A DNA stretch of 64,000 nt from a virus (IMGVR_UViG_3300033552_000001:32001-96000); one strand, 5' to 3'. Positions 21,926 through 41,000 are shown, counted from the first letter of the stretch. Notes: generated by a model not told the origin, from the letters alone. Program-made: numbers and translations.

Positions 21926-24900
21926 ATGAAAGAAGAATTAGATTTAACCCAAGTTTCTGAATTACAATTAGATACTCATTTACCAATTCAAGATCAAAAG
22001 ATTCCTGAATTTAATCCATTCAATAGATTCATTAGAAATGAAACTCCTGGAACTGGTAAAATTGTAATGCCTGAATTCAAATTAGACTATCAAGAAAAAC
22101 CTTCTGATAGTGTGCATCCATTAACCATATCTACTAAAGCTGCTCAACCTTACATTAGTAAAGGTTTTAAGCTTGCTGACATGGATATTCATAATGGTTT
22201 AGAAATGGAATTGTCTTCTACTCAAAGTGGATGGGAAAGAAAAGCAAATAATATAAAAAATGCAGGAGCTAATTTAGTTTCAATGGCAGTTCTCACTGGA
22301 TTTTCTAATCCTTTGGATATGGGATTTACCACTGATTTAGGAGATAATACTCTTGGTAAAAAACTATTTGATTGGAGTGCTGAAAAACAAAAAGAAAATT
22401 ATAATTACCAAACTAAAAATGATATTGAAGCAGAAGGAGTTTGGGATAATTTAACTAACTGGATTGACCCAACAAAAGATTCAACAAAAGGTGTTGGTAA
22501 ATTATTAGAAAGTGTAGCTTTTGGTGTAGGTGCTGGACTTGGTATAATGGCACAAGAAGCTGTTGTTTCTTATGCTACAGGAGGTAGTGGTACATTTCCA
22601 TTATTAGCTGCTAAAATTCAACAAGTGGTAAATAGTGCCAAGTATTTAGACAAGGCTTTAGACATATCAAGAATAGCTGAAAAAGGAGCATTAAATTTAG
22701 AAAGGGTATTAAGTGTTGGTGATATAACTAATTCAACAGCTAAGGGACTTAGAAAAATTTATAAAAGTCAATTAGGCTCTCATTCAGAAGCATTATTTGA
22801 AGGACTTGAAGGTAAAGAATCTTTAAAAAATGATTTAATTAGAGAATATGAAGAAATTCATGGGTATAAACCACTTGATGTTGAATTAGCAAAAATAGAA
22901 AAGGTTGCTACTGAAGCAGGTCAAGCAAGATATGGAATAAATAAAGCTTTATTATCTGTAACTAACTTTTCTCAATTCAATTCTTTATTTAAAGCCTACA
23001 GCCCAGAAAAAGAAATTGCTGATGGTTTTCTTGAAAAATTTGGTAAAGCAATTGGTATTGATCCTATTACTAAAAAAGCAGTTCTTAATAGCACTGGTTA
23101 TAAAATAACATCTCCTTGGTTTGAAAAAGGAATTAGAGCTAAATTAAAACCTGCAATTGAAGGAGCAATTGATGTAGGACAAAAAGAAATAGTGGGTAAT
23201 GGACTTATGGAAGGTGTTGAAGAAGGGCTTCAATTCTTTACTGATAAGGCATTAAATAACTATTACTCATGGAAATATCATGGAGATAATAAAAGTGCCA
23301 ATGATGCCATATATGAAGGTACAAAAGCAATGTTTTCTAAAGAAGGTATTGAATCTATTTTCACAGGAATAGTTTCTGGTGCTGGACAATCTGCTATTAC
23401 AAAATACTTTGCTTCATTATCACCTAAATTCAAAGCACAAAAGAAATTATTTGAAACACATCAAGGAGAATTGTTAGATACTTATTTAAAAATTGATGAA
23501 AAGTTTCAAGCACTTCCATTAGAGTTTAAAAAGAAATTAGTTAATGTAATGAACAAAAGTTCTGTAGGAGGAACTGTTGCTGATAAAGCACAATTATTAT
23601 CTGCTACTTCTGGAACATCTGATATATTAAATCAACCAGAAGATGAAGAACAATTTAATCAAGCATTAACACATCAATTTTACACACTTGCTTTACCTTA
23701 TGCAAAACATGGAAATATTGATATTTTAAAAGCTCAATTTGAGGAATATAAAAATTTAGATGATCAAGCATTTATGCAGACATTTGGATTGTCTGATATT
23801 AAAAACAAAAATACTACTATTGATTTATATTTAAAAGAATTTGATGCTATTCAAGAAGCTTACAGAAAATCTAATAATGCATTTTCTAAATCACCAGCTA
23901 CTCCAGAATTACAGAATGAATATAATTATTTAAAAACAGAATTAGCTTTCTCATTATACAATAGTGATAAACTAATTAAAGATGCTAAATCATTAAAAGG
24001 GGCTATTGGAGATGATTATGTACAATTATTATCTAATAAAGGAATGTCTCAATCTACTATTGAGGCTAATAATAATGAGATTGAAGAACTACAAAAAGAA
24101 ATTGAGACACCAGAAAATAATAGACTGATTGCTGGGCTTAAAAAGTACAACAGCTATATTGAAAGGGTGTTAAGTGGCAAAGTTGAATTAAAAAAAGGAG
24201 AATATATTGATATACTAAAACAACTGATTGTTGATCCTTCTGTAAACAAAAAATATGGCAAGCAGAATAGTCTTGCTAATTATGATAACCTTGATGATAA
24301 ACTAAATAAAATATATCAACTATCTAAAATTCAAGATAGAGTTAGATATACACAACAGAAATTAGACAGAATATTAAACAGTGAAAATCCATTAGATTAT
24401 TTACAACAACAAGAAAATGCTTTTGAAAATGAAGCTTTCACTTATAGTAGAACAGTAAATCCAAATCCAATAGTAGAGAATAAGAATATTGTTGAAGTAA
24501 TAACTGATGAAGAATATACTAAATTTCAAGCTGGTGATGTAAGTAAAGAATTATTAACAAGTATTGCTGTTAAATTAAAAGATAAAAAAAGTCTTTCTGT
24601 TAGAGAAAATGAAATAAATAATAAATTTAAAGATGCAATAAATTCTATTCTTGCAGCTATAAAAGCTGATGAAGATAAATTAGTTGAAATTCTTAATCCT
24701 GGTGAACAGCAATTACCTGACCCAGAAATAGCAAGAAAAAAGAAAATTGAAGAAGATAATAGAATTTTAAATCAACAAATTGAAAGAAATAAAAAACTTT
24801 TAGAAGATGAAAAAATCAGATTAAAAAAAGAAAAAGAAAAGATTATATTATTTAATGGGGAAACAGTTATTTATAATAATGAAACAGGTGTATTAAGTGT

Positions 24901-27900
24901 TTCTGCCCTTGGCTTAATAGAAATTGAAACAGAAGACAGAGTTTATGAATTAGGTAATATTGCAGATTATGTTTATTTGTCAGATTTAAAGATTAAATTA
25001 GTTCAAGAAATTGAGCAATTAAATAAGTACACTACACAGAGTGTTAATGATGATTTTATTGTTATAAATAATGTTGAATATAAAATAATTACTAATAGTA
25101 TTGGTAATATTGTAGGGCTAGAAACAAAAGAAGGAAATATTCTTAGAAATGAAGCTTTATTAATTCATGCTGAAATAGAAAGAAATAGATCTGAATATGT
25201 TCAACTTGAAGAAATTGAAGAACTATATGTTGCTGCTAAAACAGAGTTTGATGAAATTAGAATATTAGAAAATATATATAATTTAAATATTACAGAAGGT
25301 ATAAATGACTCTATTGATAAAATTTACAATCAAGAAAAGCTTGATGAAAATGAAAAATTAGCATTAAAATTATGGGTAAATGATGTTATAGATAGAATTA
25401 ATAATTTACTTAAATCATATCCTACTAATGAGAATTTTTTACTTTCTTTTAAAAACTTAAATTTACTTAAAGGCTTACTAAATAAAGATAAAAGTATTAA
25501 AAAACTAAAAAATGAAAAACCAAGAAGCAATAAAAAAGTTGTTACTCCTGTCTCTAACACCAGCCCAAAGACAGCAATTACAGAAGTCATTATCAAAGAA
25601 GACCTTCCAATAGATTTAGAAAGTTCTATAATTACTGATTTAACTGCAATAACATCACTTAATGATTTATTAGAATATTACAATAATTTAATTCCTGAAT
25701 TTCAAGAAAAATATAAAACATTATTTACAATAGCAAAAGAAGATTTGCAATTAAAAAATAAAATTCTTCAGAATTTAAATGCTCCTGTTGAAATATTACC
25801 TGTAATTCCAATTGAAACAGAAGAAAATGATTTGACAGCTAAAATTGCAGAAATAAATTCAAGAAGGCAAGAAGAATATAAAGGTAATGTAATAGAGTCT
25901 TTTAAAACTTATTCAATAGATATAGAAGGAAAAACTTATGAAATTGGAGAAGAAATACATATAGGATCAAATAATATTTTTACTTATGTTAAAAATAAAG
26001 ATGGTCTTTTTGGAAGCTCTGTTGATACAAGAAATTTATTAGCTAAAAAACAAAGCAATAAAAAGTTTTTAAAAGATGAAACAGAAGATTTTATAGATGA
26101 TGAAGTAAAAAAAGAAATTGATGATAAATATGATAAAGAAATTGAAGAACTAATAAATGGAAAACAAGAAGAAACAGAAGAAGAATTACCAATTATTGAT
26201 ACTGATGAAAATGATAATATTGAATCTAAACAATATGAAGCTTTATTTTTAGTAGATGAAAAAGGTGAAATTTTATATGAAGCAAGAGATCAAAAAGCAT
26301 TTAATGATAGATCAGCAGAACTAATTAATCTGCAAGCTAATGGCAATATTGATGCTTTTACTGATGCCATGAATTATGATGTAATAGAAGAAATTAAAAA
26401 TGCAAAATCAGAACCTACTAAATTTAGTATGGAAGAATCTTTGTATAAATTAGATCCTAAAAGTGGTATTAGAATGAGTATTAAAGGGGTTAATATGGGA
26501 TTTATTTCTACTTCTGATGACTTGTATGTTGATTTAAAAATCATAGAAGAAACAATTAATAATAAAAAGATTTTTGATACTAAGGATAGAACATCTGTTA
26601 TTAAAGATGATACTAAAAGAATATTTATTTTATACACTGACTTCTTAAAAGAGTTAGAGGGTAATGTTGCTTTATTTAATACAATTAAAAAAACAAAAGT
26701 ATCTACCACTAATAGTGCTGGAGATAAAGTTGAATCTACTTTATTATTTAGAGATGTAAAAGAAGATATTGGAATGTTAAATGATAAACAAACTGAATAT
26801 TTAAAATCTAAACAAATATTATTGCAATATTTAAAAGCTGATCCAACACAGAAACAATTAAAAGACTTAATAAAAAAACATAATATAATTGATTATCAAG
26901 CTTTTATACATTATAATAAAGAAGTGAAAGATCAATTGTATAAGTTAGAAGATACTTTATTATATAATAAATCTGCTGATAATGCTACTGGTTTATTACA
27001 TGGACATGTGGTTACAATCACTTGGAATCAAAATCCAAATGAAAGACATAATATTAGTATTGATCAAACTTTATATTCAGAGGAAGAAAGAATGTCTGGT
27101 AGTAAAAAGAATGAGGAAGCAGATGCAATTATAGAATACTTAAATACTTTACACACTTCTTTTGGTAAAAAGAAATTAGTTGTAGTTCCTCAAAGAAATG
27201 TTGATGGTAGTACTAGTTTTAGAGTATTAGATACTTTTAACAAAGCTGTTGATAATTCAAATTTAGAAGAAACAATTGATGATAGAGGAGAGTTAGCTGA
27301 ATATTTACAACAATTAGATTTACAAACTAACACTATTGATGGTGTAAAATACACTGATGATACTAAAATTAGATTTAGTTTACAAGCACATACAATTTTA
27401 GATAATGAAGATAATTTAGATTTAAAAGTAATTCTTACTTTACCAGACCAATCAGAACTTGTAGAAAATGTTATATTTAAGAAAAAAACTAGTAAAGGTG
27501 AATTATTAGATATAATTAAAAAACAATTGGATAGTGGTGTAGTTGGTAAGAAATCATTACAATTAAATGTATCTTTGTATACAGTAGAACAAAATAAATT
27601 GTTAACAGGAAAATCAATAAGTAATTTTAACATAAAATCTTATTTTGGTAAAAACCCAAAACAAATTTACAGTACTTTGTATTTAAAAGTTAAGCCTTTT
27701 CAAGGAGTTAATATTCCTAAAGTTGATACAGCAGTTGTAAATACTCCTCCTGTGCCAGTTGATAGTAATTTTGAAGAACCATTTTTTTATGAAGATCAAC
27801 AACAAGATTTTGGTGATGATATGCAATCATTTGATGAAGGAATAAATCTTGAAGATGAAGCAAAAAATGCAGAACTTGAAAAAATGTTACAAGATTTAGA

Positions 27901-28762
27901 AGCTCAAAATAATGAACCAATTATTGATGTTGTAAACACTTCTAATAATTCTTTAACACAAGAAGAAGTTGATTGGTTATATGATAATCTCACTTTAATT
28001 ACAAAAACTTATAATACTTCAACACTTTTTAATTCTATTGATACTAATTTAAAAAAAGAATTACAGTTTAAAGACAATACTATTGTAACTGCAATTTTAC
28101 CAGATGCTGGAGGAACACCTATGTTTTGGTTTAAAAGAAATAGTGGAAATTGGTTAATTACTATAACTCAAAAAAATGATAAAATTGATTTAAATTTGGC
28201 AAAACAGAATAAAAATGGTTCTTATTACAACCAAATTATTTCTCAAGAAAAAATAACAGAATTATTAAAAAAATCAGGTTTGTTAGAATTAACAAATGAT
28301 TTATATAAAGATGCAAATGTAAAACAACCTGCAACAAGGTTAGAACAGTTTGAACTTCAAAATAAAATACAACAAAAATATAATTTAAAAAGAAGTTATA
28401 AAGATATTGTAAACCAGTTAAAACCTTTACAAAATTATTCAGCATTAAATTCTAATATTCCTATTACTCCTGTAAATGCAAATCTTAGTTTTTTACAACA
28501 AATATTAAAAAGATATGATTTTGCAACAGAACAAGATAAAGAAAATATTGAATCATTATCAGAAGAAGAATTTGAACAAATAATTAAAGAAGATTATCCT
28601 GAATTAGATTTATCACTTCCAGAATCAGTTACTTCTACTGGAATGTTTATTGAAAAAGAAATACAAGTAAATAAATCACAATCCCCAATTGCAGCAACAA
28701 GAATAGAAGAACCAACAGTCAATAAAGAAGAATTGAAAGAATTAATTAAAAGATGTGTATAA
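21926..28762 (+). CDS. Giant virion ejection protein (2278 aa) with an N-terminal hydrophobic Gly/Ala segment
   Basis: AFGVGAGLGIMAQEAVVSYATGG membrane-like segment, EGVEEGLQ motif common in phage ejection proteins; single Cys at the penultimate residue. Confidence 0.7.
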   Translation: MKEELDLTQVSELQLDTHLPIQDQKIPEFNPFNRFIRNETPGTGKIVMPEFKLDYQEKPSDSVHPLTISTKAAQPYISKGFKLADMDIHNGLEMELSSTQSGWERKANNIKNAGANLVSMAVLTGFSNPLDMGFTTDLGDNTLGKKLFDWSAEKQKENYNYQTKNDIEAEGVWDNLTNWIDPTKDSTKGVGKLLESVAFGVGAGLGIMAQEAVVSYATGGSGTFPLLAAKIQQVVNSAKYLDKALDISRIAEKGALNLERVLSVGDITNSTAKGLRKIYKSQLGSHSEALFEGLEGKESLKNDLIREYEEIHGYKPLDVELAKIEKVATEAGQARYGINKALLSVTNFSQFNSLFKAYSPEKEIADGFLEKFGKAIGIDPITKKAVLNSTGYKITSPWFEKGIRAKLKPAIEGAIDVGQKEIVGNGLMEGVEEGLQFFTDKALNNYYSWKYHGDNKSANDAIYEGTKAMFSKEGIESIFTGIVSGAGQSAITKYFASLSPKFKAQKKLFETHQGELLDTYLKIDEKFQALPLEFKKKLVNVMNKSSVGGTVADKAQLLSATSGTSDILNQPEDEEQFNQALTHQFYTLALPYAKHGNIDILKAQFEEYKNLDDQAFMQTFGLSDIKNKNTTIDLYLKEFDAIQEAYRKSNNAFSKSPATPELQNEYNYLKTELAFSLYNSDKLIKDAKSLKGAIGDDYVQLLSNKGMSQSTIEANNNEIEELQKEIETPENNRLIAGLKKYNSYIERVLSGKVELKKGEYIDILKQLIVDPSVNKKYGKQNSLANYDNLDDKLNKIYQLSKIQDRVRYTQQKLDRILNSENPLDYLQQQENAFENEAFTYSRTVNPNPIVENKNIVEVITDEEYTKFQAGDVSKELLTSIAVKLKDKKSLSVRENEINNKFKDAINSILAAIKADEDKLVEILNPGEQQLPDPEIARKKKIEEDNRILNQQIERNKKLLEDEKIRLKKEKEKIILFNGETVIYNNETGVLSVSALGLIEIETEDRVYELGNIADYVYLSDLKIKLVQEIEQLNKYTTQSVNDDFIVINNVEYKIITNSIGNIVGLETKEGNILRNEALLIHAEIERNRSEYVQLEEIEELYVAAKTEFDEIRILENIYNLNITEGINDSIDKIYNQEKLDENEKLALKLWVNDVIDRINNLLKSYPTNENFLLSFKNLNLLKGLLNKDKSIKKLKNEKPRSNKKVVTPVSNTSPKTAITEVIIKEDLPIDLESSIITDLTAITSLNDLLEYYNNLIPEFQEKYKTLFTIAKEDLQLKNKILQNLNAPVEILPVIPIETEENDLTAKIAEINSRRQEEYKGNVIESFKTYSIDIEGKTYEIGEEIHIGSNNIFTYVKNKDGLFGSSVDTRNLLAKKQSNKKFLKDETEDFIDDEVKKEIDDKYDKEIEELINGKQEETEEELPIIDTDENDNIESKQYEALFLVDEKGEILYEARDQKAFNDRSAELINLQANGNIDAFTDAMNYDVIEEIKNAKSEPTKFSMEESLYKLDPKSGIRMSIKGVNMGFISTSDDLYVDLKIIEETINNKKIFDTKDRTSVIKDDTKRIFILYTDFLKELEGNVALFNTIKKTKVSTTNSAGDKVESTLLFRDVKEDIGMLNDKQTEYLKSKQILLQYLKADPTQKQLKDLIKKHNIIDYQAFIHYNKEVKDQLYKLEDTLLYNKSADNATGLLHGHVVTITWNQNPNERHNISIDQTLYSEEERMSGSKKNEEADAIIEYLNTLHTSFGKKKLVVVPQRNVDGSTSFRVLDTFNKAVDNSNLEETIDDRGELAEYLQQLDLQTNTIDGVKYTDDTKIRFSLQAHTILDNEDNLDLKVILTLPDQSELVENVIFKKKTSKGELLDIIKKQLDSGVVGKKSLQLNVSLYTVEQNKLLTGKSISNFNIKSYFGKNPKQIYSTLYLKVKPFQGVNIPKVDTAVVNTPPVPVDSNFEEPFFYEDQQQDFGDDMQSFDEGINLEDEAKNAELEKMLQDLEAQNNEPIIDVVNTSNNSLTQEEVDWLYDNLTLITKTYNTSTLFNSIDTNLKKELQFKDNTIVTAILPDAGGTPMFWFKRNSGNWLITITQKNDKIDLNLAKQNKNGSYYNQIISQEKITELLKKSGLLELTNDLYKDANVKQPATRLEQFELQNKIQQKYNLKRSYKDIVNQLKPLQNYSALNSNIPITPVNANLSFLQQILKRYDFATEQDKENIESLSEEEFEQIIKEDYPELDLSLPESVTSTGMFIEKEIQVNKSQSPIAATRIEEPTVNKEELKELIKRCV
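25512..25613 (+). CDS. Candidate overprinted 33-aa ORF in the +1 frame of the 2278-aa gene
   Basis: aaaaaactaaaaaATG leader; MKNQEAIKKLLLLSLTPAQRQQLQKSLSKKTFQ*; not in the ORF track because of its size. Confidence 0.35.
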   Translation: MKNQEAIKKLLLLSLTPAQRQQLQKSLSKKTFQ

Positions 28763-31700
28763 TATGAAAGATTGTTTAATGTTAGATAATTTAGATGTCC
28801 AAGAATGGATTGATAAAGAAGGAATTAATACAACTTATGAAGAATATTTAAAAAAGGGATATTTACCTGATTATAAAGATTGGACAGGTAAAGAAGTTTC
28901 TACTGATACAGCAAAAGATATTTTAAATAGTTTTTTTGGACTTGACACTTTTAATGTTCAAGTGAAAGACTTTTCTAATTTAATGTATAGCCTGCCAGCT
29001 AATACTGCTGCTGCTTATTTACAACAAGTTATTTATTTAAATCAAAATCCTCAAAAAGCAGATGTTTATGAAGAAGGATTTCATGCAATAATGGATGTTG
29101 TAATATCTGCTGATGAAAAGAAAGAAGTGTTGAAAGCTGGGCAATCTGTTTTAAGAGCAAGACTTAAATCAGAAGGTAAAACAATTAACCAATACATCAA
29201 AGAATTAGTAACAAAATATCCTACTATTTATGGTAGATTGTCTGCTGAAAAAGCATTAGAAAGAGCTTTTGAAGAAGAAGTGGCTTCTATGTTTGTTGAT
29301 AGTTTTGAAAATAAAAACTATTTAAAACAAGAATTTGATTTAAGTAAAAAACTTTCGCCCTTCTTTGGTGACAATGCTAAATCAATTGCTAAAATATTAT
29401 CAAAAATATTTAAGTTTTTTAAAGATATTTATAACAAATTTCTTGGTAATCAAGATACACTTTCTTTATTCTTTCAAAACATTAAAGATGGAAAGTTTAA
29501 AAATAATAATAAAGTAATTGATAGTAATGGAGATAATAATATAGTTCCATTTACAAGACTTTTAGAATTATACACTACTAGATTTAACAGAATTTCAAAA
29601 AAAGAAACACAATTTCTTTCTCATTCACTAACATCAGAAGCTACTCAAAGAGTAATTAGAAATGTTGGTGCAATATTCTTTCAATTAGAAGGTGCTAAAT
29701 TATTTAACACTGTTGCTGAAAGAATGGATGAATCAATTGATTTGTATTTTAAATTAGAAGAAGATTTCAAAGAGATTGATTTAAATTCTGAAGTTAATGC
29801 AACTGCTTTAGAAGGACTTAAGGAAGATGTTAAAGAATATATTGAAGTATTTTCTTCTATTGTAGATTTTGATTCAGATACAGTAGAAAATGAAGAAGAA
29901 ACTCCAAATGATTTTGCTAAGTTTGACAGTAGTGCAAATGAGAGTAGTACTTTTGAAAATTCATTTTCTAAACAATTAAAATTAAGAATTGGTAAAACAG
30001 GTAGAGTAAAAACTATTCACAATTATGATTATAAAGGAGAGGGTACTATCTATCCAATTAAATTAATTGAATCAGTTAATGTATTAAATGTATATTATTC
30101 ATTTGCCAGAACATTAGGTAATACCTCTTCAGATAAAGAAAGATGGAATAGGCTTTATGCTTTTTCTAATTTAAAAGGTAATCCAGATGCAAAAGCTTTT
30201 GTTGATACTTTATTGTTTGATTTATTCCATTCACATGAAAGAATGGAAGAGCATGTAGGTAAAGAATTTCATGTAATTGTTGAAGAAATAAAGAAATTGT
30301 ATGTAGCAAAAGTAGCAGGTTTTAATATATTTCCTGAAAATGGAATTACTATTTCTTCTACCAATGCAATGATTATTAATAGTATTTTAAAAGGATTTGA
30401 TTTATGGAAAAGAAGTGAATATATACTAAAAGTAAACACTATATCAAGACAAACAGAATTGTTTGATGCTAATTTAGAAAGTATTAAAAATTCACAGTAT
30501 AAAACTTGGGTAAATTCTTTGCAAGAAATATTTAATGTTGATGCTAAGAATAAAGATAATAAACAATATGTAGAAGTAGAACAAATAAAGTGGGAAAATC
30601 CAGAAACTACTCAAAGTTTTAATGATTTGTTAAATAGACTAAAATCTTATTTTGGTAATTTAAACATTCAGTTGTCAGATGAATATTTAAAATATTCTAT
30701 ATTATCTCCAATGGTAGATAGTAAAAGAGAAATTGTATTTGAAAATGACCCTGCTTTAAGATCTTTATTTACCAATTTTAAAATTCCTAATAATGCATTA
30801 TTAACACCAGACACTACAGCACAAATCAATACAAGAGTTAAAAGATTTATGGTGGCAGGTGATATTAATAATGTTACAAACTTTAAGCAAGGAATGGTTA
30901 GGTATTTAAAATCTATTGCTGAAGGTAATGGGTATTTTGATGAAAGGATTCCTGATAATACATTTAAAGGAGCTGATGGTAAGACAAAATATAATTACCA
31001 AAATAAAACTTATTTCCTACAAAAGATTGATGAAATATTAAAAAATCCAACCAAAGCATTAACTTATAAAACATTAATTGGAAAACAACTTAATGAAGAA
31101 ACACAACAATATGAAAATATTTATTTAAAAGAAGGATTTGAATTTATTTCTGATAATTATCTATTAAAAAAGTTTGCTAATGAATATAAAGCAGCTATTG
31201 ATGCTGGTGATATATTTTCTTTTTCAGCTAATGGACTTAGACAATCAGATAGTTATACTGATATGGCAACTATGCAAACAGTTACTACAGAATCAGATGG
31301 ACTTTCTGTTGGTGATATGTCAACCAGAGATTTTGCTATTTATTTATTATCTGCTGCTGTTACTAAAAAAGAATCTGCTGCTGCTACTACTCCTATATAT
31401 GTAGGTAATTTTGAAGCTTCTAAAACTTTTGAATTTGTAAATCTTCCCTTTATTAAAGGATTGTTTACAGGAGAAAAAGTATCAACAGTGGCAATTGATT
31501 TAGTTAAAAAAGAATTTGAAAAAGAATTTAATAGAATTGTTAGATATGCAAAAAATATTAATACTACTAAATATGATAAATATAACAGTAGTTCAATAGC
31601 TAAAATTACTTATGGAACTGATACTTTAAAAGATTTCTTTTATATTCCATTTACATTAAAAAATGGTAAAAAGCAAGTTAATTTTTCTGCTTTTAGAAGT

Positions 31701-34700
31701 ATGCAATTTAGTGATCATGTAGGTAATTTAATAGATGATGTACATTACAATTTATCACAAGAAGATCAAGATAAAATAAATAGTATTTTAAATGATGCAT
31801 CTTCTGATACTACTGAATTTACTACTAAGGACTTTACTTTACAAGATAACCTATTAACAAAAGCATTATTGGGTAAACCCTTTGATGTTTCTAATGAAAT
31901 TGTTGAAACTGGAATTAATAATGTATTAAATGGTACACTTGATTACATAAAAGAAGAAGGTATTATTGATAATCAGAATAATCTATTATTAGATAATAGT
32001 TATGAAAAGGCTAATACTAATTTTGAGTTTAAAGATAATGCATTACAAGGCAATATTAAAAAGATATTACTTTCTAATATGTTAAATACTATGTTCTTAA
32101 ATCAATTACTGCATGGTGATCAAGCATTATTGTATAAGAATGATATGGTGGATATGTTTAAAAGATTTAAAGGTAGAAATGCTGCTATTAACTCAATGAA
32201 TACTTCTACTATTGCCCCTGAATTAGGAATTGATAAAGTATGGGAGTCAATGGAAGTAATTGTCCATGATGAAATTAAAGGAATTTCTTCTATTGATGGT
32301 AAACCAATTGACAAAGCAGATGCTCAAAATCATACCACTGTTAATTACATGAGGTATGCTATGTATTCATTGAGTAGACTTACAAGAGATTATTCTCAAT
32401 TGTTTGATATTATAGAACAAGGTGAACCAATATCAGCTAAATTAGAAAAGAAAATCTTTGATTTATCATTGTATATTCCTGTTTTAAAAACTGTATTTGC
32501 TGATGGCTATACATTCTTTAAAAAGTCAGATTTTATGTTAACTAAACAGTTGACATCTTTGATGAATCCAATAACAAAAGAATTTGCAGAAACACAAGGA
32601 GATTTTATAAATGGTAGATGGAAACATAAAATAGGAGCTACTGTTGAAACAGTGAGGTGGTCTGATGGTAGTTATTATGAAGTAGTTCCAAGACCAGAGA
32701 AAAATACTACCAAAGAACCATTGCATGATAGAAGAAAAGCAATGGAAGGGTGGAGATTTGCTAATGATGGTTGGAGTTATTCTGGAAGAGAAATTATGTT
32801 ATCAATGCCAATTTCAGCTTCTAAAATGTTAAACCTTAATACATTAAAAGGAAGTGATTTAAAAAGTGATAAAATTGAAGGTTCAATTAGAACTATTGAT
32901 TTAAAATATTATGGATTGCAAGTTGAAAGTTCTCATCCACATGATAAAATTCCTCACTTCTCACAATACATAGAAATTGCTTTAAATGAACTTAATAAAG
33001 CTGGGACTACTAAATTTACCATTGACAAACAAGGATACACTGGAAGCCAACTATTAAGGCTTTACCAAGATGGATTGGTTGCAAGAGATCAAATTAAAAT
33101 TGAGGAATTATTAAATGAGTTATTTGACAAAGATAATGATGGTGTTTTTAAAGAGAAAGAATTTAGAAATAGATTTGCTAAATCATTAGAAACAAGTGGT
33201 GCTGATAAACAAACTATTGAATTAGTAACCAAAGGATATTCATTAAATCATCCTTTAATTAAAGAGAAGTTTATTGCCCAGATATTTTCACATTTTACAA
33301 AAGATGGATTGTCACAAAAGATTGCAGGTGATTCAGCTCCCCATGTAAGTAGTTATGGAATGAAATTAATTAAACAGGTGATTTCAGTTCCTTTAAATGG
33401 TAAAGAAGAAATAACATGGAGAGTTCTTGAAGTTGATAGTCAAGAATATTTTGATGCTGTAAATAGTAAAACAGAAGAACAATGGAATGAAGTAGATTTT
33501 GGAGATTTACTTTTTTACCCAGACATTGAGGGTAATAAAATTAGCAGTAGTCATGGTAAAAAAGCATTAAAAATTGCATTAACTAAAATAGGAGTTGGAG
33601 CATTTTTTATTGATGATTTAAGACATTTTAAACCAAGAATTGAAGAAGGTAAATTAACAGGATATTTTGATGAAGTAGTTCTTCCTAAATTTAATATTAA
33701 TCAAAAAGGTATTAGTAAAAAAGAGAAATATATGTTCTCTGTTAGAATACCTTCACAAGATAAACATTCTGGTGTTAATGTAGAATGGGTACACATGCTT
33801 CCTGCTTATCATGGAAGTTTAGCTGTTGTTCCAAAAGAAATTGTACAGTTGTCAGGACATGACTTTGATGTTGATAAAGCTTTTATTCATAAAGTAGATG
33901 GATATTATGAAAAAGGTATTTTTGTTCCTTATAGTAATGATTTAAAAAGTGTAATTGCTTATAATCTTGCTAATCATAGAGAATTAAAACAATACATTAA
34001 GGATAATCCAACTACAACAATACTAGAAGCATTTAAAAAATTTGGACTTCCAACAACAGAAGTTGAATTTAATTCTTATAAAAAGAAATATGGCGGATAT
34101 TCAAACAGAGGATATATCAATAATTTATTATTACAGGCACAACAACAAGCATTAGCTAATGTTGAAACAATGGATGGTAAAATAGCTGATACTCCTGCTT
34201 CACTTACTTATTTAGATACTGTATTAAAAGAATTTCCTTTGGGAACTGTTGAAACAAACATCACTCCCAAGTATTTACTATCAGATGATGGTAAAACATT
34301 TGTTGCAGGTATTAAAAAGAAATTCAATGTGCATTCAATGTTTGCTCATATAATTACTCATAGAAACACTACTACTGGTAAAAAGAATATCGGCCCTGAT
34401 GTTAACTGGAATTTATTAGATATTGTATTGAATAGACTTGATGTACAAATCAATCCTAAGAATGCTGTTATGGTTGAAATTAATGGAAAACAAGAATCAT
34501 TTGATTCTCTTCAGTTATTTTTAAATCATAAAATGGAAAATGGTGGTGAATTTTTAAGAGTATTTGATGTACTATCCACTATGATTTCTGCTGCAACTGA
34601 TGAGGCTAAAGAGCAATTAAATGCAAGATATGGACTTACTATTGATGCTTTAAATGCAATTCTTCCTTTTGTTGCTATGGGAGGAAATCTTTCTATTGGA

Positions 34701-37115
34701 ATTGCCTTAGTAAATCAACCAGTTATTAAAGAATTTTTAGCTTTTAAAGCCAAGAAGAATTATGCTGTTTTAACAAAAAAAGAAACTGGATATAAATATT
34801 TTAACAATGAAAAGATTATTGAAGAAATGTTTAAATCACAAGATGCTTATGAAATTATAAAAGCATCAGAACTTGTATTTTCAATAGATGATTTAGCCAA
34901 AGGACTTAGACCAAAACAATATGCTGAATCAACAAAAGAAATAAAAATGGCAATGTTAAGAGACTTTTTAAAGTTGTCAGAAATAACTGAATATGGAAAT
35001 AATGTAGTGGGAGCAATTAAGCTTAAAAAAGGACTTTCTACTGATATTTATGCTTTTAATGATACCTTAGAAAAATTGGCTAAAATACAATATGAACCAG
35101 GAAGTACAGAAGATACATCACCATTTTTTATTAAAGAAGAAATTAAAAACAATCCATTAGCAAAAGAAATCAAAGGTAAAATAGAAATAGTAGAAAGAAT
35201 TAATGAAGCTTTGCCAAAACTTCTTGCTATAAAATCTCCAATATTTGAAGCACTTAGAGCTTCTATTAAGACACAAGCAAAGGAAAATTGGAATAATGTT
35301 GAATTAAAAGAATTGGATAGTGAATTAGAATCATTTATTTACAGCCAAATGCTTTATAAATCATTAGAAGAGGCTGGAAACTATGATGCATTATTATTAA
35401 AGTATTTAAAATCAGGACTTACAGATCCTACTGATGATAATAACATTGTTAATGTATTTACAAAATTTAAAACAGCTATTGCAAATGATCCTACTTTAAA
35501 TAACAATTCTTTAATTAAGAAATTAGAATTATTAACAGAAAGTGGTACATCATTTTTAAAACTAAATCAATTAGTTAAATTAAATGATAATCAAATGACT
35601 GATTTAGCTGATGCATTTACTTTTTTAGCTAATAGACCATTTTCAATAAATGAAGGAATATCACCATTAGAATTGACAAAGGCTTTACAAGCATTGTATA
35701 TTATTAAAGATGGTATGCAATTTAAATACACAGGTATTACTAAAATATTTCCTGTTGAAGTATTTACAAGAATGTCTGAAAATATTGAAAAAGTAATAAA
35801 GAATGGTGAAGATGTAAAAGAATTATTTACTACAGCAACATTTAACGAATTTCAAAGAAGATATTTTGAATCTGTTAAACATAAAAGTAGTAGTAAAACA
35901 ATTACAATTTATGATGTTAAAGGAAAAAATGATGAGTATTTATTTGAATTAGATAAAATTACTGGTGCAAGTTTAGCTATTTATACTGAACAGAAAGGAA
36001 GTGGAATAACAGTTGATAAGAAAGGTAATTTACTAAGATATATTACATTAAAAATTGGTAAAGATTCTTACAGTATGAAGCTTATTTCTAATGATGGATT
36101 AACATCTGTTTACAATGAATACAAACCACTTGGTACTTCTAATAGTACTTTAATGGGACTTCCTATTGAAAATAATGTATTTGTCAGTACTGATAGAAAA
36201 GAAGTTTCTTTACCAAGTGATAGTGAAAAGCTTGTAGTTTTTGAAGGAAATATTAACTTTACAGAAATTAATAACAATCAAGATGGACAAAGAACAAAAG
36301 GACAGGATAAAATTAATCAAAGACTATTATCAGATTCAGAAAGACGAAATATTGATAGATTATCATCAATACGAAATAAGGAAATGGAAACACAAGCCTT
36401 GTCAGGGATTATTTTGTATGCTGATTCCAATAAAAAAGGAATTATATCAAAAACTAATAAAGAAGGAAACATTAAAGTGTTTAAAGTGGACAGCTCTGAG
36501 TCCTTATTATCAGTTATACAACAAAAGCTTAATGACAGGAACACCCTCAACGGAAAAATATTTGCAGAACTTAAAAGAGTGGCTGACACCAAATTGGTAG
36601 TTGATAATAACGGGCATTTTATTTATGTTACTGGAGATAATATGTATATTAATCCTAAAGCAATGTTTGAACATTTAAAAACAGAAAATGGTGAAAATTA
36701 TTTAGACACATTGTTATTTGAGGAATTAATTCATATTATTACTAATCAATTAATTACTTTTCAAGAAAAAATAAAATTAACAAAAGATCAATTAAAAAAA
36801 GACTCTGCTTTTGTCACTAAAGTTGCAAATGTTTATCCTACAAAAAATTCTTATGAAGCATATTTTGAGTATATAAGAGTAATGGTTCAACAAGAACTAA
36901 TAGGAACAACTACTTTAAAAGAAAGAATAACATGGGATGAAACTGCCATTAAAATATTTAATGAGCTTATGGAATTTATTTTTTCAGTAATTGAAACAAG
37001 AAACACTAAAAAATTAATTAAAAAACACGTTAATTATATTAATGAAATTAAGAATCAATCAAACCAAGAACAACAATCAGATACAGAATTAAAAATTTGT
37101 GAAGGTAATAAATAA
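28755..37115 (+). CDS. Virion-packaged single-chain DNA-dependent RNA polymerase (phi14:2 gp66-like, two-barrel)
   Basis: RIPSQDKHS...LSGHDFDVDK catalytic DxDxD motif at 33861-33875, DAQ and KSD motifs upstream, TDEAKE downstream; 2786 aa in the crAss-like giant-gene cluster. Confidence 0.9.
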   Translation: MYNMKDCLMLDNLDVQEWIDKEGINTTYEEYLKKGYLPDYKDWTGKEVSTDTAKDILNSFFGLDTFNVQVKDFSNLMYSLPANTAAAYLQQVIYLNQNPQKADVYEEGFHAIMDVVISADEKKEVLKAGQSVLRARLKSEGKTINQYIKELVTKYPTIYGRLSAEKALERAFEEEVASMFVDSFENKNYLKQEFDLSKKLSPFFGDNAKSIAKILSKIFKFFKDIYNKFLGNQDTLSLFFQNIKDGKFKNNNKVIDSNGDNNIVPFTRLLELYTTRFNRISKKETQFLSHSLTSEATQRVIRNVGAIFFQLEGAKLFNTVAERMDESIDLYFKLEEDFKEIDLNSEVNATALEGLKEDVKEYIEVFSSIVDFDSDTVENEEETPNDFAKFDSSANESSTFENSFSKQLKLRIGKTGRVKTIHNYDYKGEGTIYPIKLIESVNVLNVYYSFARTLGNTSSDKERWNRLYAFSNLKGNPDAKAFVDTLLFDLFHSHERMEEHVGKEFHVIVEEIKKLYVAKVAGFNIFPENGITISSTNAMIINSILKGFDLWKRSEYILKVNTISRQTELFDANLESIKNSQYKTWVNSLQEIFNVDAKNKDNKQYVEVEQIKWENPETTQSFNDLLNRLKSYFGNLNIQLSDEYLKYSILSPMVDSKREIVFENDPALRSLFTNFKIPNNALLTPDTTAQINTRVKRFMVAGDINNVTNFKQGMVRYLKSIAEGNGYFDERIPDNTFKGADGKTKYNYQNKTYFLQKIDEILKNPTKALTYKTLIGKQLNEETQQYENIYLKEGFEFISDNYLLKKFANEYKAAIDAGDIFSFSANGLRQSDSYTDMATMQTVTTESDGLSVGDMSTRDFAIYLLSAAVTKKESAAATTPIYVGNFEASKTFEFVNLPFIKGLFTGEKVSTVAIDLVKKEFEKEFNRIVRYAKNINTTKYDKYNSSSIAKITYGTDTLKDFFYIPFTLKNGKKQVNFSAFRSMQFSDHVGNLIDDVHYNLSQEDQDKINSILNDASSDTTEFTTKDFTLQDNLLTKALLGKPFDVSNEIVETGINNVLNGTLDYIKEEGIIDNQNNLLLDNSYEKANTNFEFKDNALQGNIKKILLSNMLNTMFLNQLLHGDQALLYKNDMVDMFKRFKGRNAAINSMNTSTIAPELGIDKVWESMEVIVHDEIKGISSIDGKPIDKADAQNHTTVNYMRYAMYSLSRLTRDYSQLFDIIEQGEPISAKLEKKIFDLSLYIPVLKTVFADGYTFFKKSDFMLTKQLTSLMNPITKEFAETQGDFINGRWKHKIGATVETVRWSDGSYYEVVPRPEKNTTKEPLHDRRKAMEGWRFANDGWSYSGREIMLSMPISASKMLNLNTLKGSDLKSDKIEGSIRTIDLKYYGLQVESSHPHDKIPHFSQYIEIALNELNKAGTTKFTIDKQGYTGSQLLRLYQDGLVARDQIKIEELLNELFDKDNDGVFKEKEFRNRFAKSLETSGADKQTIELVTKGYSLNHPLIKEKFIAQIFSHFTKDGLSQKIAGDSAPHVSSYGMKLIKQVISVPLNGKEEITWRVLEVDSQEYFDAVNSKTEEQWNEVDFGDLLFYPDIEGNKISSSHGKKALKIALTKIGVGAFFIDDLRHFKPRIEEGKLTGYFDEVVLPKFNINQKGISKKEKYMFSVRIPSQDKHSGVNVEWVHMLPAYHGSLAVVPKEIVQLSGHDFDVDKAFIHKVDGYYEKGIFVPYSNDLKSVIAYNLANHRELKQYIKDNPTTTILEAFKKFGLPTTEVEFNSYKKKYGGYSNRGYINNLLLQAQQQALANVETMDGKIADTPASLTYLDTVLKEFPLGTVETNITPKYLLSDDGKTFVAGIKKKFNVHSMFAHIITHRNTTTGKKNIGPDVNWNLLDIVLNRLDVQINPKNAVMVEINGKQESFDSLQLFLNHKMENGGEFLRVFDVLSTMISAATDEAKEQLNARYGLTIDALNAILPFVAMGGNLSIGIALVNQPVIKEFLAFKAKKNYAVLTKKETGYKYFNNEKIIEEMFKSQDAYEIIKASELVFSIDDLAKGLRPKQYAESTKEIKMAMLRDFLKLSEITEYGNNVVGAIKLKKGLSTDIYAFNDTLEKLAKIQYEPGSTEDTSPFFIKEEIKNNPLAKEIKGKIEIVERINEALPKLLAIKSPIFEALRASIKTQAKENWNNVELKELDSELESFIYSQMLYKSLEEAGNYDALLLKYLKSGLTDPTDDNNIVNVFTKFKTAIANDPTLNNNSLIKKLELLTESGTSFLKLNQLVKLNDNQMTDLADAFTFLANRPFSINEGISPLELTKALQALYIIKDGMQFKYTGITKIFPVEVFTRMSENIEKVIKNGEDVKELFTTATFNEFQRRYFESVKHKSSSKTITIYDVKGKNDEYLFELDKITGASLAIYTEQKGSGITVDKKGNLLRYITLKIGKDSYSMKLISNDGLTSVYNEYKPLGTSNSTLMGLPIENNVFVSTDRKEVSLPSDSEKLVVFEGNINFTEINNNQDGQRTKGQDKINQRLLSDSERRNIDRLSSIRNKEMETQALSGIILYADSNKKGIISKTNKEGNIKVFKVDSSESLLSVIQQKLNDRNTLNGKIFAELKRVADTKLVVDNNGHFIYVTGDNMYINPKAMFEHLKTENGENYLDTLLFEELIHIITNQLITFQEKIKLTKDQLKKDSAFVTKVANVYPTKNSYEAYFEYIRVMVQQELIGTTTLKERITWDETAIKIFNELMEFIFSVIETRNTKKLIKKHVNYINEIKNQSNQEQQSDTELKICEGNK
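36283..36600 (+). CDS. Candidate overprinted 105-aa ORF in the +1 frame of the RNA polymerase gene
   Basis: ataacaatcaagATG leader; MDKEQKDRIKLIKDYYQIQKDE...; the main frame uses otherwise avoided CGA codons here. Confidence 0.4.
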   Translation: MDKEQKDRIKLIKDYYQIQKDEILIDYHQYEIRKWKHKPCQGLFCMLIPIKKELYQKLIKKETLKCLKWTALSPYYQLYNKSLMTGTPSTEKYLQNLKEWLTPNW

Positions 37116-37141
37116 TAATAGGTAATGTCAAAATTAATTAA

Positions 37142-37172
37142 TACCTTTGTTGTAGTAGAATTTTCTGCTACA
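37142..37172 (+). promoter_or_regulatory. Bacteroidota -7 box plus 5' leader hairpin for the second BRO gene
   Basis: TACCTTTG at 37142-37149, then tgtagtagaa-tt-ttctgctaca hairpin; the -33 element is weak. Confidence 0.55.
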
Positions 37173-37185
37173 AAACAAAAATATA

Positions 37186-38028
37186 ATGCAAGAATTAACA
37201 AAAAACAATCAATTAGAGGTGGACAACCAGCCGTTATTAACCTCAAAGATTTTGAAATTAGATTATGAAACTCTAATTTCTCCATTTGATGAAAGTATCA
37301 AAGTAATTAGGTTTAAAAGTTTTAAGGACAAAAATGTGAATTTATTTTCTGGCACTGAAACAGCAAAAAATTTAAATCACAGTAATTTAGCAATGGCTTT
37401 ATTAAGAAGTGAATGTATTCCTAATAAAGACTATTTTGTATTGGAAAAAAAGAATTGTCCAAAAGAAATTTGGAAAGATTTTGAAGAATTAAATTTTGTT
37501 TCTAAGTTCTCTCCAAGAACAACTATTTTATTTGAATCTGGTTATTGGAAGCTTTTAAACCATTCTGAATTACCATTAGGTTTGAAGTACAGAAATTGGG
37601 TAGCATCAGAAGTAATGCCTACTATATCAAAAACAGGAAAATATGAATTACCTAAATTTGAAATAGATACAAAATTACTATCTTCTGCAACTGAAAGATC
37701 TGTTCAACTTGAAAATAGTAAAAGTATTAATACTTATAATTTTGAATTAGACGGTACAAAGAAAGTGATTGAGTATAATTTTAAAAACTGTTTACAAGTA
37801 ACTAATAAAACTCCAAAAGAAATTAAAAAAACTTATGGTAGACCAGATAAATCAGCAAAAGAAATATTAAGAAGAACTAATCCTGAATGTGCTATGACAA
37901 TGACAATGAATGATTATTTAGTTGAAAAGTATAATTTAGAAATAGAACAATTAAAAGAAACTGATGAATTTCTAACTAAAACATTTCAATCATTAGGTAA
38001 ATTAGGAATAACATTAAAAATTCAATAA
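37186..38028 (+). CDS. BRO-N-like domain protein, paralog of 18522-19235
   Basis: LFSGTETAKNLNHSN...ILFESGYWKLLNHS...YRNWVASEVMPTISKTGKY is the BRO-N signature; C-terminal domain shared with the first BRO gene. Confidence 0.8.
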   Translation: MQELTKNNQLEVDNQPLLTSKILKLDYETLISPFDESIKVIRFKSFKDKNVNLFSGTETAKNLNHSNLAMALLRSECIPNKDYFVLEKKNCPKEIWKDFEELNFVSKFSPRTTILFESGYWKLLNHSELPLGLKYRNWVASEVMPTISKTGKYELPKFEIDTKLLSSATERSVQLENSKSINTYNFELDGTKKVIEYNFKNCLQVTNKTPKEIKKTYGRPDKSAKEILRRTNPECAMTMTMNDYLVEKYNLEIEQLKETDEFLTKTFQSLGKLGITLKIQ

Positions 38029-38032
38029 TTTT

Positions 38033-38062
38033 AAGAGCTTTTAGAAATAAAAGCTTTTTTAT
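38033..38062 (+). terminator. Intrinsic terminator
   Basis: agctttt-agaaat-aaaagct hairpin followed by a T tract. Confidence 0.6.
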
Positions 38063-38080
38063 TTTAAAAAAAATATAATT

Positions 38081-41000
38081 ATGGCATGCCAAATCCCTTA
38101 TCTTGATAATAAATATCAAGGAGAACAATTAAAATCATTAAGAAGTAAACATATTAAATTAGTAAAAGATATTATTTCTTCTAAATTATTTTATAGAAAG
38201 AATAATCATTTACAATTATCAAGAGATTTAACTTCTGATGTAAGAAAACAACAAGAAGCTTTTGTTGCTACAATTCCTGAATTATCAGTTGTTAAATCAG
38301 ATTTATCTTTTGATATTTTATCATTAAAAGTTGATGTTGTACAACAAACAAATGATATTCAATATCAAAAAGAGAATACAGAAAAGATTGCAAATGAAGA
38401 AGAAATAAATTATAATTATACTACCCAAGAAGTATCAAAAGATAAAAATATTGATAGGTTTTTTACTAATAATAAAACAACTGTAGAAGAAGTGTTGGGT
38501 AAAATAACTCAACCTCAATTAAGAATATTAGCTAATGCATTATTAAAACTTTTAACACCTGCTCAAAGAAAATTAGCAGTAAATCTTGTTGATAGTGGTA
38601 ATTTTAGAGGGCTTATTTCTCCAAATTCAGGAGTAATACAAATAAATAGAAATGCTAATTTTCCAAAAGGAGATGCTTCTAAAACTATTATACATGAGAT
38701 AATACATTTGATGACTATACAATACTTGTCAAGTAATAAATCAAGTGAATTGTATAAAGACTTTGATAAATTATATCAATATGCAAAAAAAATATTATTA
38801 GCACAAAATAAACCTTTTTATGGTATTACTAACATTGATGAATTTATTGCTGAAGCATTGTCTAATGGTGAATTTATTAAAGAACTTTCTTTGATGGGTT
38901 CATTAAAAGGAATTGAAAAATATGATAATTTATTTAGTGAATTTGTTGAAAAAGTATTGGAAGTAATTAAAAAAGTATTTGGTTCTAAAAATGATAATTT
39001 ATACAATCAAATATCTTCTTTGGCTTCACAAATTATTGCTTTAAATGAAGATTTATCATCACAAAGCCTTGATTCATTTGATGAAGAAAGTAGTATGTAT
39101 GATGCAGATAATGTGCCTCCAAATCAAGATGATGAAGCTGTAAATGAAAATACTGAATTTAGTAAATACCTTTCAAATGAAGAAAATGAAGCTACATTTG
39201 TTAAAATGATTAATGGTATTAAAATTAAATTTAATGACTATTTAGGACTTTTACAAGAATCAATGGTTGAATACCCATCTTCTGAAAAAGAAGTGAAATA
39301 TGCTGAATTAAATGCTTTAAGAAAAATATTAAATAATGAAACTACAAAAGATGCTATCATTGGACTTAATAATTATATTACACAATCCACTCAATGGATT
39401 GATTCTATTAGTAATGAGTATTTTAATAATGATAAAAATGTATTAGCTGATGTAAAAGCATTAGAAGCATTACCAGAAGGTGAATTTAAACAAGCTGAAA
39501 TACAAAGACTTACAAGAGTACTTAATAAAACAAAACATTTTCTTTCTTTATTCAATGATTTAGATGAATTTAAAACTGAATTAAATAGATCTGGATTTCT
39601 TCCTGATGATAAATACAATACTAAATTCTTTAATAATAGAGAATTGTTTGCAAAAGAAATGGAAGCTATTGGTGCAAAAAGTATTATTGATATTACTTAT
39701 GATGCAATTGCTAGAAGTAATTTTACTACAGAAGGTATTAAAAACCTTATATTTTTTAATCAGTATAATGGTAAATTAAATACCATTTCTTATGAAGAAG
39801 GTGAGATTTTTAGAGATAAAGTGAATGAAATGTTTAAAAGGAATGTAAACAAAACATTTACTTCTCAAATGTCAGAAGCATTAGGTAAAGCTGAAAGACT
39901 TAAAAAAGAAATTAATAATCTGCATTACACCTTAGCAACTGATTGGTTATTTCCTTTATATGACCAACAACAATCAAAATTAGCAGTTGATAGTCTAATG
40001 AGAGTATCAAAAGCAAAATTTAAGGCATTACTAAAACTTTCTGATAAAGATGAGAATACAGTTGTATCTTGGATTGAAGCTACTATACAGTCAAAAGACC
40101 CATTAGTTGCCACTGTAGCCAAGAAAATAGCTGATGGCTTAAGAGAGGTTGACTTAGAGAATTATAAGCTCTCTGTGGAGATTACCAATGAAAGAGCTGC
40201 TTCTGGATTTGATCAAATGAAACCACAAGAAGTAACCCAAGCTTACAATGAAATGACTAATTTGGTTACTCAATTGGTAGTGGATGACTTTGGTAATCCA
40301 GTTCAATTAACTGATGATGATTTAAGAGAAGGAGTTAAAATTAATACCTTGCAAGGAGAAAAAAGATATTTAACTGTACAAACAAAAGCATGGAAAACTG
40401 GGGAACATACTTCATTAGCAGATGCTTATAAAAAGTTAGTTTCTAATTTAATTTACAGAAAAAATAAAGATGAGAAGGGAGTAGAAATTCCTTCCTTGAT
40501 TAATCAATTAATGGAAGTTGCTTTTAATGATAAAAATGAATTAGATGCAACATCATTGGCTAAATTTATTACAGCTAATCAAAAAATAATGCCTGAATTA
40601 TGGGAAATGAGATTTGTATTATTTAAAACATTAAAAGATGGACTTGCTTTAGAAAATGGTAAATATTACAATTATAATCCAGCATTATTAAAAAGTTTGG
40701 CTGAATCAAAGGATAAAAAACAGCATTTAAAGAAAGTAATTGAAGGACAATTGTGGAGAGTGCTACATTTTAATAAAACATATACAGCAAAAACACAAGA
40801 TGAAGTAACAAAATTGCTTATAAATAATGGAATTACAATTGCTAATGTTAATAAACCATCTAAATACTTAGATGATAACACAGCTGTAAGTGATAACATA
40901 AATAGTTTTAAATTTAATGTAAATAAAAATCAAGCAGGTGCTTATGTATCAGTTGAAAGAGGTGGTGAAACCTTGTATTTATATAAAGATAAAAGTGGTG

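Follow-up and report, generated by a model that had tools for sequence, protein, structure and literature searches.

Introduction

Crassviruses are the most abundant phages of the human gut. How a megadalton protein cargo is packed in a virion and passes through a narrow tail is a question raised by the structural papers devoted to ΦcrAss001 (PMC10172136) and N4. The present analysis deals with the polymerase block of a crassvirus-type tail/cargo operon, carried by a viral DNA stretch of 64,000 nucleotides (IMGVR_UViG_3300033552_000001:32001-96000, hereafter the window), and in particular with three giant proteins, namely protein A, the virion RNA polymerase and protein C, whose four cysteine residues (Cys) all lie at chain ends that face another member of the block. 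These residues are considered here as candidate junction pairs of a tether linking the three proteins.

Ejection Proteins in Related and Unrelated Phages

One such bond is already known, without the rule described below, from the pre-ejectosome of cyanophage A4, where cryo-electron microscopy (cryo-EM) located a disulfide between Cys1715 of gp27 and Cys5 of gp26 inside the capsid (PNAS 2025, PMC12002296). The C-terminal helix of gp27 is stapled in a cleft of gp26 and the bond is treated as a local stabiliser, and not as the expression of a rule that follows gene boundaries (PMC12002296). In this phage (Anabaena phage A-4L), Cys1715 and Cys5 are the only cysteines of gp27 (1717 amino acids, aa) and gp26 (1114 aa), respectively. 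Like the window proteins, the A4 proteins are consecutive and otherwise Cys-free ejection proteins, with cysteines at -3 (counted from the C-terminus) and 5, as compared to -2 and 4, and -5 and 3, at the two junctions of the window; unlike the latter, they form a single bond and involve neither a three-member chain nor an RNA polymerase. Since A4 gp26-gp29 gave no phmmer match up to E 10 with any giant protein of the window, the reference phages or the other loci analysed, the likeness to the crAss block is an analogy and not family membership.

Among the crassviruses, gp47, gp49 and gp50 of ΦcrAss001 have been identified as virion proteins by mass spectrometry and proposed to leave through the tail in a partly unfolded state, and the portal vertex and tail of the same virions contain inter-subunit disulfides (PMC10172136). 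Packaging of the polymerase-block proteins in the virion is established by mass spectrometry for crAss001 and phi14:2 only, the phage of the window being uncultured. As in the window, the phi14:2 block consists of a DFDxD two-barrel polymerase placed between two giant virion proteins, the downstream one containing a zincin motif; the virion RNA polymerase gp66 and its neighbours gp65 and gp67 are gp077, gp076 and gp078 in GenBank, and the GenBank names are used below. For the fused forms of the block, the phi14:2 preprint proposed cleavage of a polyprotein and not the re-joining of split products (bioRxiv 10.1101/2020.03.07.982082).

Cysteine is also lacking in the ejection proteins of unrelated podophages, with no residue in 4294 aa of N4 gp50/51/52 and none in 2065 aa of T7 gp15/gp16. 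The virion RNA polymerase of N4 belongs to the T7-like single-subunit enzymes and has no relationship with that of the crAss block. The lack of cysteine in these proteins fits the published view that ejection proteins exit at least partly unfolded through channels of 25-50 Å (PMC10172136; 2026 N4 paper). As a separate observation, T7 gp14 (L086) possesses a single cysteine, at residue 2, with none in gp15 or gp16 and no apparent facing partner.

Cysteine is absent, in the context of the polymerase block, from the ΦcrAss001 atlas (PMC10172136), where no link between gp47, gp49 and gp50 is considered, from the phi14:2 preprint (bioRxiv 10.1101/2020.03.07.982082), which is also silent on disulfides, and from the 2026 N4 paper, and a full-text literature search combining cysteine or disulfide with crassvirus cargo or polymerase retrieved no description of the pattern. 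The new element would be the extension of a disulfide-type linkage of ejection proteins to a three-member chain built around a virion RNA polymerase, a proposal that draws on order-wide evolutionary evidence.

Four Cysteine Residues at Facing Ends

The three giant proteins, their cysteine codons (from an exact codon reading) and their sequence motifs are distributed as follows.

21926..28762, + strand: protein A, 2278 aa, putative first member of the chain, in a position equivalent to crAss001 gp47 and phi14:2 gp078
28754..28756, + strand: TGT codon, Cys2277 of protein A
28764..37115, + strand: virion RNA polymerase, 2783 aa from ATG, putative middle member of the chain, with the GHDFDVD catalytic motif
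28773..28775, + strand: TGT codon, Cys4 of the polymerase (start MKDC)
33855..33875, + strand: GHDFDVD, two-barrel RNA polymerase metal-binding motif, polymerase residues 1698-1704 (sequence motif)
37098..37100, + strand: TGT codon, Cys2779 of the polymerase (end LKICEGNK)
38081..43216, + strand: protein C, 1711 aa, gp49-like, putative last member of the chain (phmmer to crAss001 gp49 and phi14:2 gp076)
38087..38089, + strand: TGC codon, Cys3 of protein C (start MAC)
38693..38707, + strand: HEIIH zincin motif, protein C residues 205-209 (sequence motif)

Protein A contains a single cysteine, residue 2277 of its terminal KRCV, and none at the N-terminus; protein C contains a single one, residue 3, and none at the C-terminus. 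The polymerase, numbered here from the ATG at 28764, contains Cys4 and Cys2779; starting from the GTG at 28755 it would comprise 2786 aa, and the two residues would be numbered 7 and 2782. Four other open reading frames (ORFs) of 319, 975, 862 and 848 aa, located upstream in the same operon, are devoid of cysteine. An exact recount of the seven proteins reveals no additional internal cysteine, in agreement with the first-pass annotation of the window, which had counted only these four. The same annotation had described the muzzle protein as Cys-rich, and the 4050-9107 protein indeed contains 19 cysteines.

Taken together, the seven genes contain four in-frame TGY codons in 9783, as compared to an expectation of 106.7 based on the other ORFs of the window, where cysteine averages 1.09% (Poisson P = 2.5e-40), and this near-total absence matches that of the N4 gp50-52 and T7 gp15/gp16 type. 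Out of frame, TGY remains common in the seven genes (135 and 523 occurrences), and the depletion therefore reflects selection at the protein level. For the three giants, the chance that four uniformly placed cysteines would all fall within the four facing end zones of 7 residues is ~3e-10.

The cultured and reference crassviruses display a similar distribution. The block of ΦcrAss001 resembles that of the window in lying downstream of a muzzle gene, in obeying the cysteine rule and in containing a homologue of protein C: the only cysteine of gp47 (2341 aa) occurs at -3, that of gp49 is Cys5, and gp50 contains Cys5, Cys1334 and a cysteine at -9. It differs in the location of the gp47 gene on the opposite strand and in the one extra internal cysteine of gp50. 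The pattern of phi14:2 is identical to that of the window, with exactly four terminal cysteines, i.e., the last residue of gp078, which is its sole cysteine, Cys3 and a cysteine at -2 in the solved polymerase gp077 (2180 aa), and Cys3 only in gp076. In p-crAssphage, gp45 has a cysteine at -2, and gp44, annotated as a polymerase fused to a further subunit (polymerase+D), has Cys3 and no C-terminal cysteine.

Two further observations relate to these phages. In p-crAssphage, gp47 (L083:1588-4161, 857 aa) possesses a single cysteine at -2 and the next protein, gp46, has none; this terminal residue may be unpaired or may have another partner. A zincin HExxH motif is located in the downstream protein of the window and phi14:2, ~200 residues from its N-terminus, and in the upstream protein of crAss001 (L081, gp47 residue 2157) and p-crAssphage (L083, gp45 residue 1743), ~200 residues from its C-terminus, so that it adjoins a polymerase junction in both arrangements.

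Conservation of the Terminal Cysteines

A cysteine occurs within the last 7 residues of all 29 polymerase homologues (2666-4836 aa, 23-53% identity), the 12 nearest of which also possess one at position 3-5, and internal cysteines are restricted to 3 of the 29. In an alignment of 13 sequences (A1), the Cys4 column is invariant, as is the GHDFDVD motif with D1700, D1702 and D1704. Cys3 is the sole cysteine in the five orthologues of protein C (45-58% identity), and its column is invariant in the corresponding alignment A2. For protein A, an exhaustive profile-free search with the last 1199 residues found 21 proteins, of which 15 have a cysteine, mostly their only one, within the last 5 residues; the homology is limited to a domain of ~180 aa near the C-terminus. 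Conservation of the terminal cysteines, a check proposed in the first-pass annotation, is found for the polymerase, for protein C and, in most homologues, for the C-terminal half of protein A.

Each of the four residues is kept in homologues of as little as 23% identity, within a flanking sequence that drifts. The last ~450 residues of the polymerase are hypervariable, and a tip motif S-D-(T/S)-x-F...C is retained; the first 85 residues of protein C share 67% identity among orthologues, versus 37% over the next 245. The conserved N-terminal part of protein C and the preserved tip of the polymerase are hints of possible docking modules.

Some of these relatives show additional features. P0046 (2500 aa), which shares the C-terminal domain of protein A, contains Cys5 and a cysteine at -5, and an A-type protein may accordingly be a middle member of a longer chain in that phage. 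The nearest relatives of the polymerase (P0002, P0003, P0006, P0008 and P0009) are 600-1600 aa longer and all still end in a terminal cysteine. They carry PIF1/AAA_30-type helicase domains or, in the case of P0003, PF08719; provided that these domains belong to the additional C-terminal portion, as suggested by the positions of the motif, extra cargo modules seem to have been spliced in ahead of the tether tip.

A Cysteine Pair at Each Gene Junction

The comparison was extended to the whole order with a set of 80 IMG/VR loci obtained by an alignment-based scan, the 29 database proteins and the reference phages, which yielded 102 polymerases grouped into 55 clusters at 40% identity, with neighbours defined by size and position only. 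A search for the GHDFDVD motif in IMG/VR identified 303 crAss-type relatives. Wherever the polymerase and the downstream giant are separate genes, both facing ends carry a cysteine (31 of 31 clusters, 57 loci), and the same holds for separate upstream/polymerase junctions (9 of 9 clusters). In the crAss001-like loci, where the gp47-like protein is convergently encoded, it possesses the C-terminal cysteine in 21 cases out of 21. The outer ends of the block are devoid of it, both at the N-terminus of the first protein (0 of 20 clusters) and at the C-terminus of the last one (0 of 25). As a background, 4 of 79 (N-terminal) and 7 of 79 (C-terminal) other complete ORFs of the same loci have an end cysteine, for an overall cysteine content of 1.36%.

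The C-terminal cysteines are located 0-12 residues from the chain end, and the N-terminal ones at positions 3-8. The rest of the end sequences shows little conservation, and the cysteines are not accompanied by a conserved His, Cys or Asp. In the window lineage, the rule is obeyed despite the insertion of a BRO gene.

Fusion and Fission of the Genes

The state of the junction cysteines follows the way in which the block is divided into genes. All the polymerases that lack both a C-terminal cysteine and a downstream giant (L004, L031, L036, L051 and L057) carry a gp49-type module fused to their C-terminal part (E 1e-30 to 1e-123): L036 (5636 aa) and L051 (5472 aa), where the module is detected at E 1e-73 and 4e-61, respectively, have no cysteine at all, and L004, L031 and L057 lack it both at the junction and at the C-terminus. 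On the upstream side, a gp47-type module is fused to the polymerase in L038 and L077 and no cysteine occurs at the equivalent junction. Fused giants such as that of L036 and the virion RNA polymerase gp50 of N4 (3500 aa) are giant polymerase-bearing ejected proteins that are wholly Cys-free. In functional terms, they represent the uninterrupted thread which the proposed tether of the window would mimic, with the difference that their continuity is provided by the peptide backbone, hence no junction cysteine is needed.

When the catalytic motif lies at least 2600 residues from the N-terminus of the polymerase, the N-terminal cysteine is always absent, and when it lies closer, always present. 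Shifted gene boundaries are accompanied by a cysteine pair at the new boundary (L010-L012/L064; L028 versus L038). In L010, L011, L012 and L064, the polymerase is split elsewhere, just ~270 residues precede its catalytic motif, and the N-terminal polymerase part is presumably fused to the upstream protein of 2700-2970 aa.

A maximum likelihood tree of the 55 polymerase cores ('quick' search, LG+G4) was used to count independent changes. On the N side, 12 changes of the split state and 12 of the cysteine state were counted, and the 10 independent pairs located on supported branches are all concordant (sign test p = 0.002). On the C side, 5 changes were counted and ~5 of 5 pairs are concordant (p = 0.06, the floor for five pairs). 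Around the polymerase/gp49 junction, mapping with full-length proteins gave ~85 residues in the fused forms versus ~310 in the split crAss001, a further hint of possible docking modules; no match to the fused giants was obtained by phmmer when the queries were limited to the terminal 400 aa of gp50 and gp49 of crAss001.

That cysteines appear and vanish in matched pairs at gene boundaries and are lacking at the outer ends is the pattern expected from a pairwise link between facing ends. The pairing of protein A with the polymerase and of the polymerase with protein C, put forward in the first-pass annotation, is borne out to this extent across the order: the residues occur at the facing ends of separate genes, never at outer ends, and are absent when the genes are fused. 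This covariation of cysteine pairs with gene boundaries is difficult to account for by generic end tags or by neutral leftovers.

The Proposed End-to-End Tether

The four cysteines probably represent the two junction pairs of a head-to-tail tether, most likely disulfides, a reading to which a probability of roughly 0.6 is given. Cys2277 of protein A would pair with Cys4 of the polymerase, and Cys2779 of the polymerase with Cys3 of protein C. The two inter-chain disulfides would form after packing of the proteins in the virion, and would rebuild three gene products into a single linear thread of ~6770 residues, roughly 0.8 MDa, comparable to what is one polyprotein in other crassviruses. A disulfide is the simplest chemistry, as there is one thiol per end and no conserved extra metal ligand nearby; it is made plausible by the inter-subunit disulfides of crAss001 virions, and the A4 bond offers an analogous case.

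The location of the cysteines would find its explanation in the way the cargo leaves the capsid. If the proteins exit at least partly unfolded via a narrow tail, an internal cross-link would jam, so only end-to-end links would be tolerated; a link located within ~12 residues of the chain ends would keep the chain nearly linear and threadable, which would account for cysteines that always lie within ~12 residues of an end. The bond would serve to fix the stoichiometry, to ensure co-packaging and sequential exit, and would then be reduced or persist in the cytoplasm. The cysteine pattern, its conservation and its covariation with gene boundaries are observations, from which we infer the bond itself, its chemistry, its timing and its role, as well as the direction and order of exit and the reduction in the host.

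Several points weigh against this tether. Assembly takes place in a cytoplasm that is reducing, and the crassviruses of the gut live under anoxic conditions, which places the timing, or even the occurrence, of thiol oxidation in doubt. The bond seen by experiment is that of A4 only, and gp47, gp50 and gp49 were not resolved by cryo-EM of ΦcrAss001 (PMC10172136). No full-length orthologue of protein A was detected. Except for L038, L077 and L028, the split or fused state behind the N-side concordance was assigned according to where the catalytic motif lies and not by homology. A single locus departs from the rule, i.e., L014 (5990-20299), with a 2723-aa polymerase devoid of C-terminal cysteine and a later giant that starts with M-Q-C. 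Finally, a few internal cysteines are tolerated in some lineages. A complex predicted from two segments of 250 aa, the C-terminal one of the polymerase and the N-terminal one of protein C, with A1 as the sole alignment, scored 0.02 and was counted neither way.

With respect to L014, its polymerase ends in a different type of domain and is followed by a 697-aa gene, and the M-Q-C giant has no visible partner; the locus may be rearranged. As for the tolerated internal cysteines, they recur near the catalytic motif, either ~10 residues after it or 70-150 before it (L019, L023, L028, L038, and Cys1334 of crAss001 gp50), which suggests a second, lineage-specific conserved cysteine in the active-site region.

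If the tether is true, it would explain the fixed stoichiometry, the order and the continuous thread of three separately made proteins, as well as the interchangeability of gene fusion and fission in the polymerase block. It would also provide an annotation rule, whereby a giant Cys-free protein with a single terminal cysteine is a likely member of an ejected chain, the position of the cysteine indicating which neighbour is joined. A broader proposal, which falls somewhat short of even odds, is that every split-gene crassvirus stitches its block by terminal disulfides into one thread of ~0.7-1 MDa, packed, pulled and delivered as a unit in the manner of a post-translational polyprotein, and that, together with A4, a Cys-free body plus terminal cysteine pairs would be a general, convergent rule of the ejection proteins of short-tailed phages.

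Alternative Explanations

The covalent tether could serve only to guarantee a 1:1:1 stoichiometry and co-packaging, or to hold a polymerase holoenzyme together, the order of exit being irrelevant. The three proteins are annotated as associated with the RNA polymerase and form one polyprotein in some phages, and equal copy numbers would be guaranteed by fusion and by tethering alike. Such a role would however permit cysteines anywhere on the surface, and their strict placement within at most ~12 residues of an end in every lineage better fits a threadable linear chain, which makes this variant rather unlikely.

The facing ends could also meet with the cysteines acting as shared metal ligands or as a non-covalent docking contact instead of a disulfide; in the metal variant, one zinc could for instance receive four thiolates from two copies of a junction, as in the zinc hook of Rad50. 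All the pairing evidence in favour of the disulfide tether applies equally to this explanation, metal sites form more readily than disulfides in the reducing cytoplasm where assembly occurs, and the better conservation of the N-terminal module beside the cysteine, relative to the part that follows, suggests a docking surface. However, each end offers one cysteine with no conserved His, Cys or Asp beside it, two junctions would have to come together for a usual zinc site, and the sole solved case with the same signature, A4, is a disulfide. Metal or docking contacts are accordingly held to be an improbable alternative to the disulfide pairs, a notch below the preceding one.

A further explanation assumes that the terminal cysteines do not pair mutually, each of them bonding a third partner such as the portal, an inner capsid protein, a DNA end or a host factor, or acting as an independent end signal. 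It can invoke the disulfides known among the portal-vertex and tail proteins of crAss001, and the lone C-terminal cysteine of p-crAssphage gp47, which lacks an obvious facing partner. It leaves unexplained the absence of cysteine at the outer ends (0/20 and 0/25 clusters) and the matched-pair gain and loss that accompany gene fission and fusion, and is very unlikely in comparison to a mutual pairing of the facing ends.

That the four cysteines persist as harmless remnants at disordered ends, the others being purged by selection, can hardly be entertained: chain ends are indeed often disordered and weakly constrained, but the cysteines are conserved while their neighbours vary, the equally free outer ends never carry one, an end cysteine occurs in just 5-9% of background proteins, and the uniform-placement probability reaches ~3e-10 for the window alone.

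Two other candidates were rejected. A cause at the nucleotide level, i.e., TGY within a ribosome-binding site or a start/stop overlap, is ruled out by the persistence of the pairs across inserted genes or gaps of 0.5 kb (window; L010, L015 and L049) and on the opposite strand (crAss001). A split intein with trans-splicing would require an N-fragment of ~100 aa with Cys as its first residue and a C-fragment whose final Asn precedes Cys, Ser or Thr; this mechanism, like a native ligation, is left without room by cysteines so close to the ends (0-12 residues at the C-terminus, positions 3-8 at the N-terminus), and a Pfam search found no intein or Hint family.

Organization of the Operon in the Window

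The window is very AT-rich and its tail/cargo operon of the crassvirus type is located on the + strand, with all its genes in this orientation. Besides the polymerase block, it comprises the following genes.

4050..9107, + strand: crassvirus muzzle protein, 1685 aa, 19 Cys (Pfam PF25731 crAss_MUZ, 50.8 bits for a cut-off of 27; phrog_37948, E 1e-113)
9107..10066, + strand: Cys-free 319-aa protein in cargo position (0 Cys; no Pfam or PHROG match)
10314..13241, + strand: Cys-free 975-aa protein in cargo position (0 Cys in frame, 57 TGY out of frame)
14665..17253, + strand: Cys-free 862-aa protein in cargo position (0 Cys)
19379..21925, + strand: Cys-free 848-aa protein in cargo position (0 Cys)
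37186..38028, + strand: BRO/anti-repressor-like gene, 280 aa, 4 Cys, outside the chain (PHROG anti-repressor families, E 9e-10; Bro-N weak)

The PF25731 muzzle gene at 4050..9107 fixes the downstream block as a crAss tail/cargo operon. No family was found in PHROGs or Pfam for protein A, the polymerase, protein C or the 319-, 975-, 862- and 848-aa proteins. The last four had been labelled as cargo in the first-pass annotation; their location after the muzzle gene agrees with this label, which no family match supports. The presence of a BRO gene between the polymerase and protein C, reported in the same annotation, is corroborated by the match of 37186-38028 to anti-repressor/BRO families.

Protein C matches crAss001 gp49 (phmmer E 3e-19) and phi14:2 gp076 (E 3e-9), and its HExxH is common to the latter (HEIMH at residue 245). 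Protein A has no sequence match with crAss001 gp47, phi14:2 gp078 or p-crAssphage gp45, and fits them in size and position. For the window polymerase, neither tblastn of the GenBank phage collection nor a single-protein search for related loci gave a match, and related loci were obtained by the alignment-based scan only.

The cargo/polymerase row is interrupted by three genes of the mobile or moron type, at 13297-14382, 18522-19235 and 37186-38028. The first one encodes a TnpB / IS605 OrfB protein (Cas12f-like) of 361 aa with 14 Cys on the + strand, between two Cys-free genes in cargo position (phrog_506, E 3e-97; PF01385 and PF07282). The other two, also on the + strand, are BRO/anti-repressor-like genes, and the cysteine pair of the polymerase and protein C is kept although the one at 37186-38028 intervenes. 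Further upstream, at 1134-2156 (+ strand), a 340-aa protein resembles a ferrochelatase in its N-terminal half and a 2OG-Fe(II) oxygenase in its C-terminal half (phrog_2954 and phrog_61, E ~1e-22 each).

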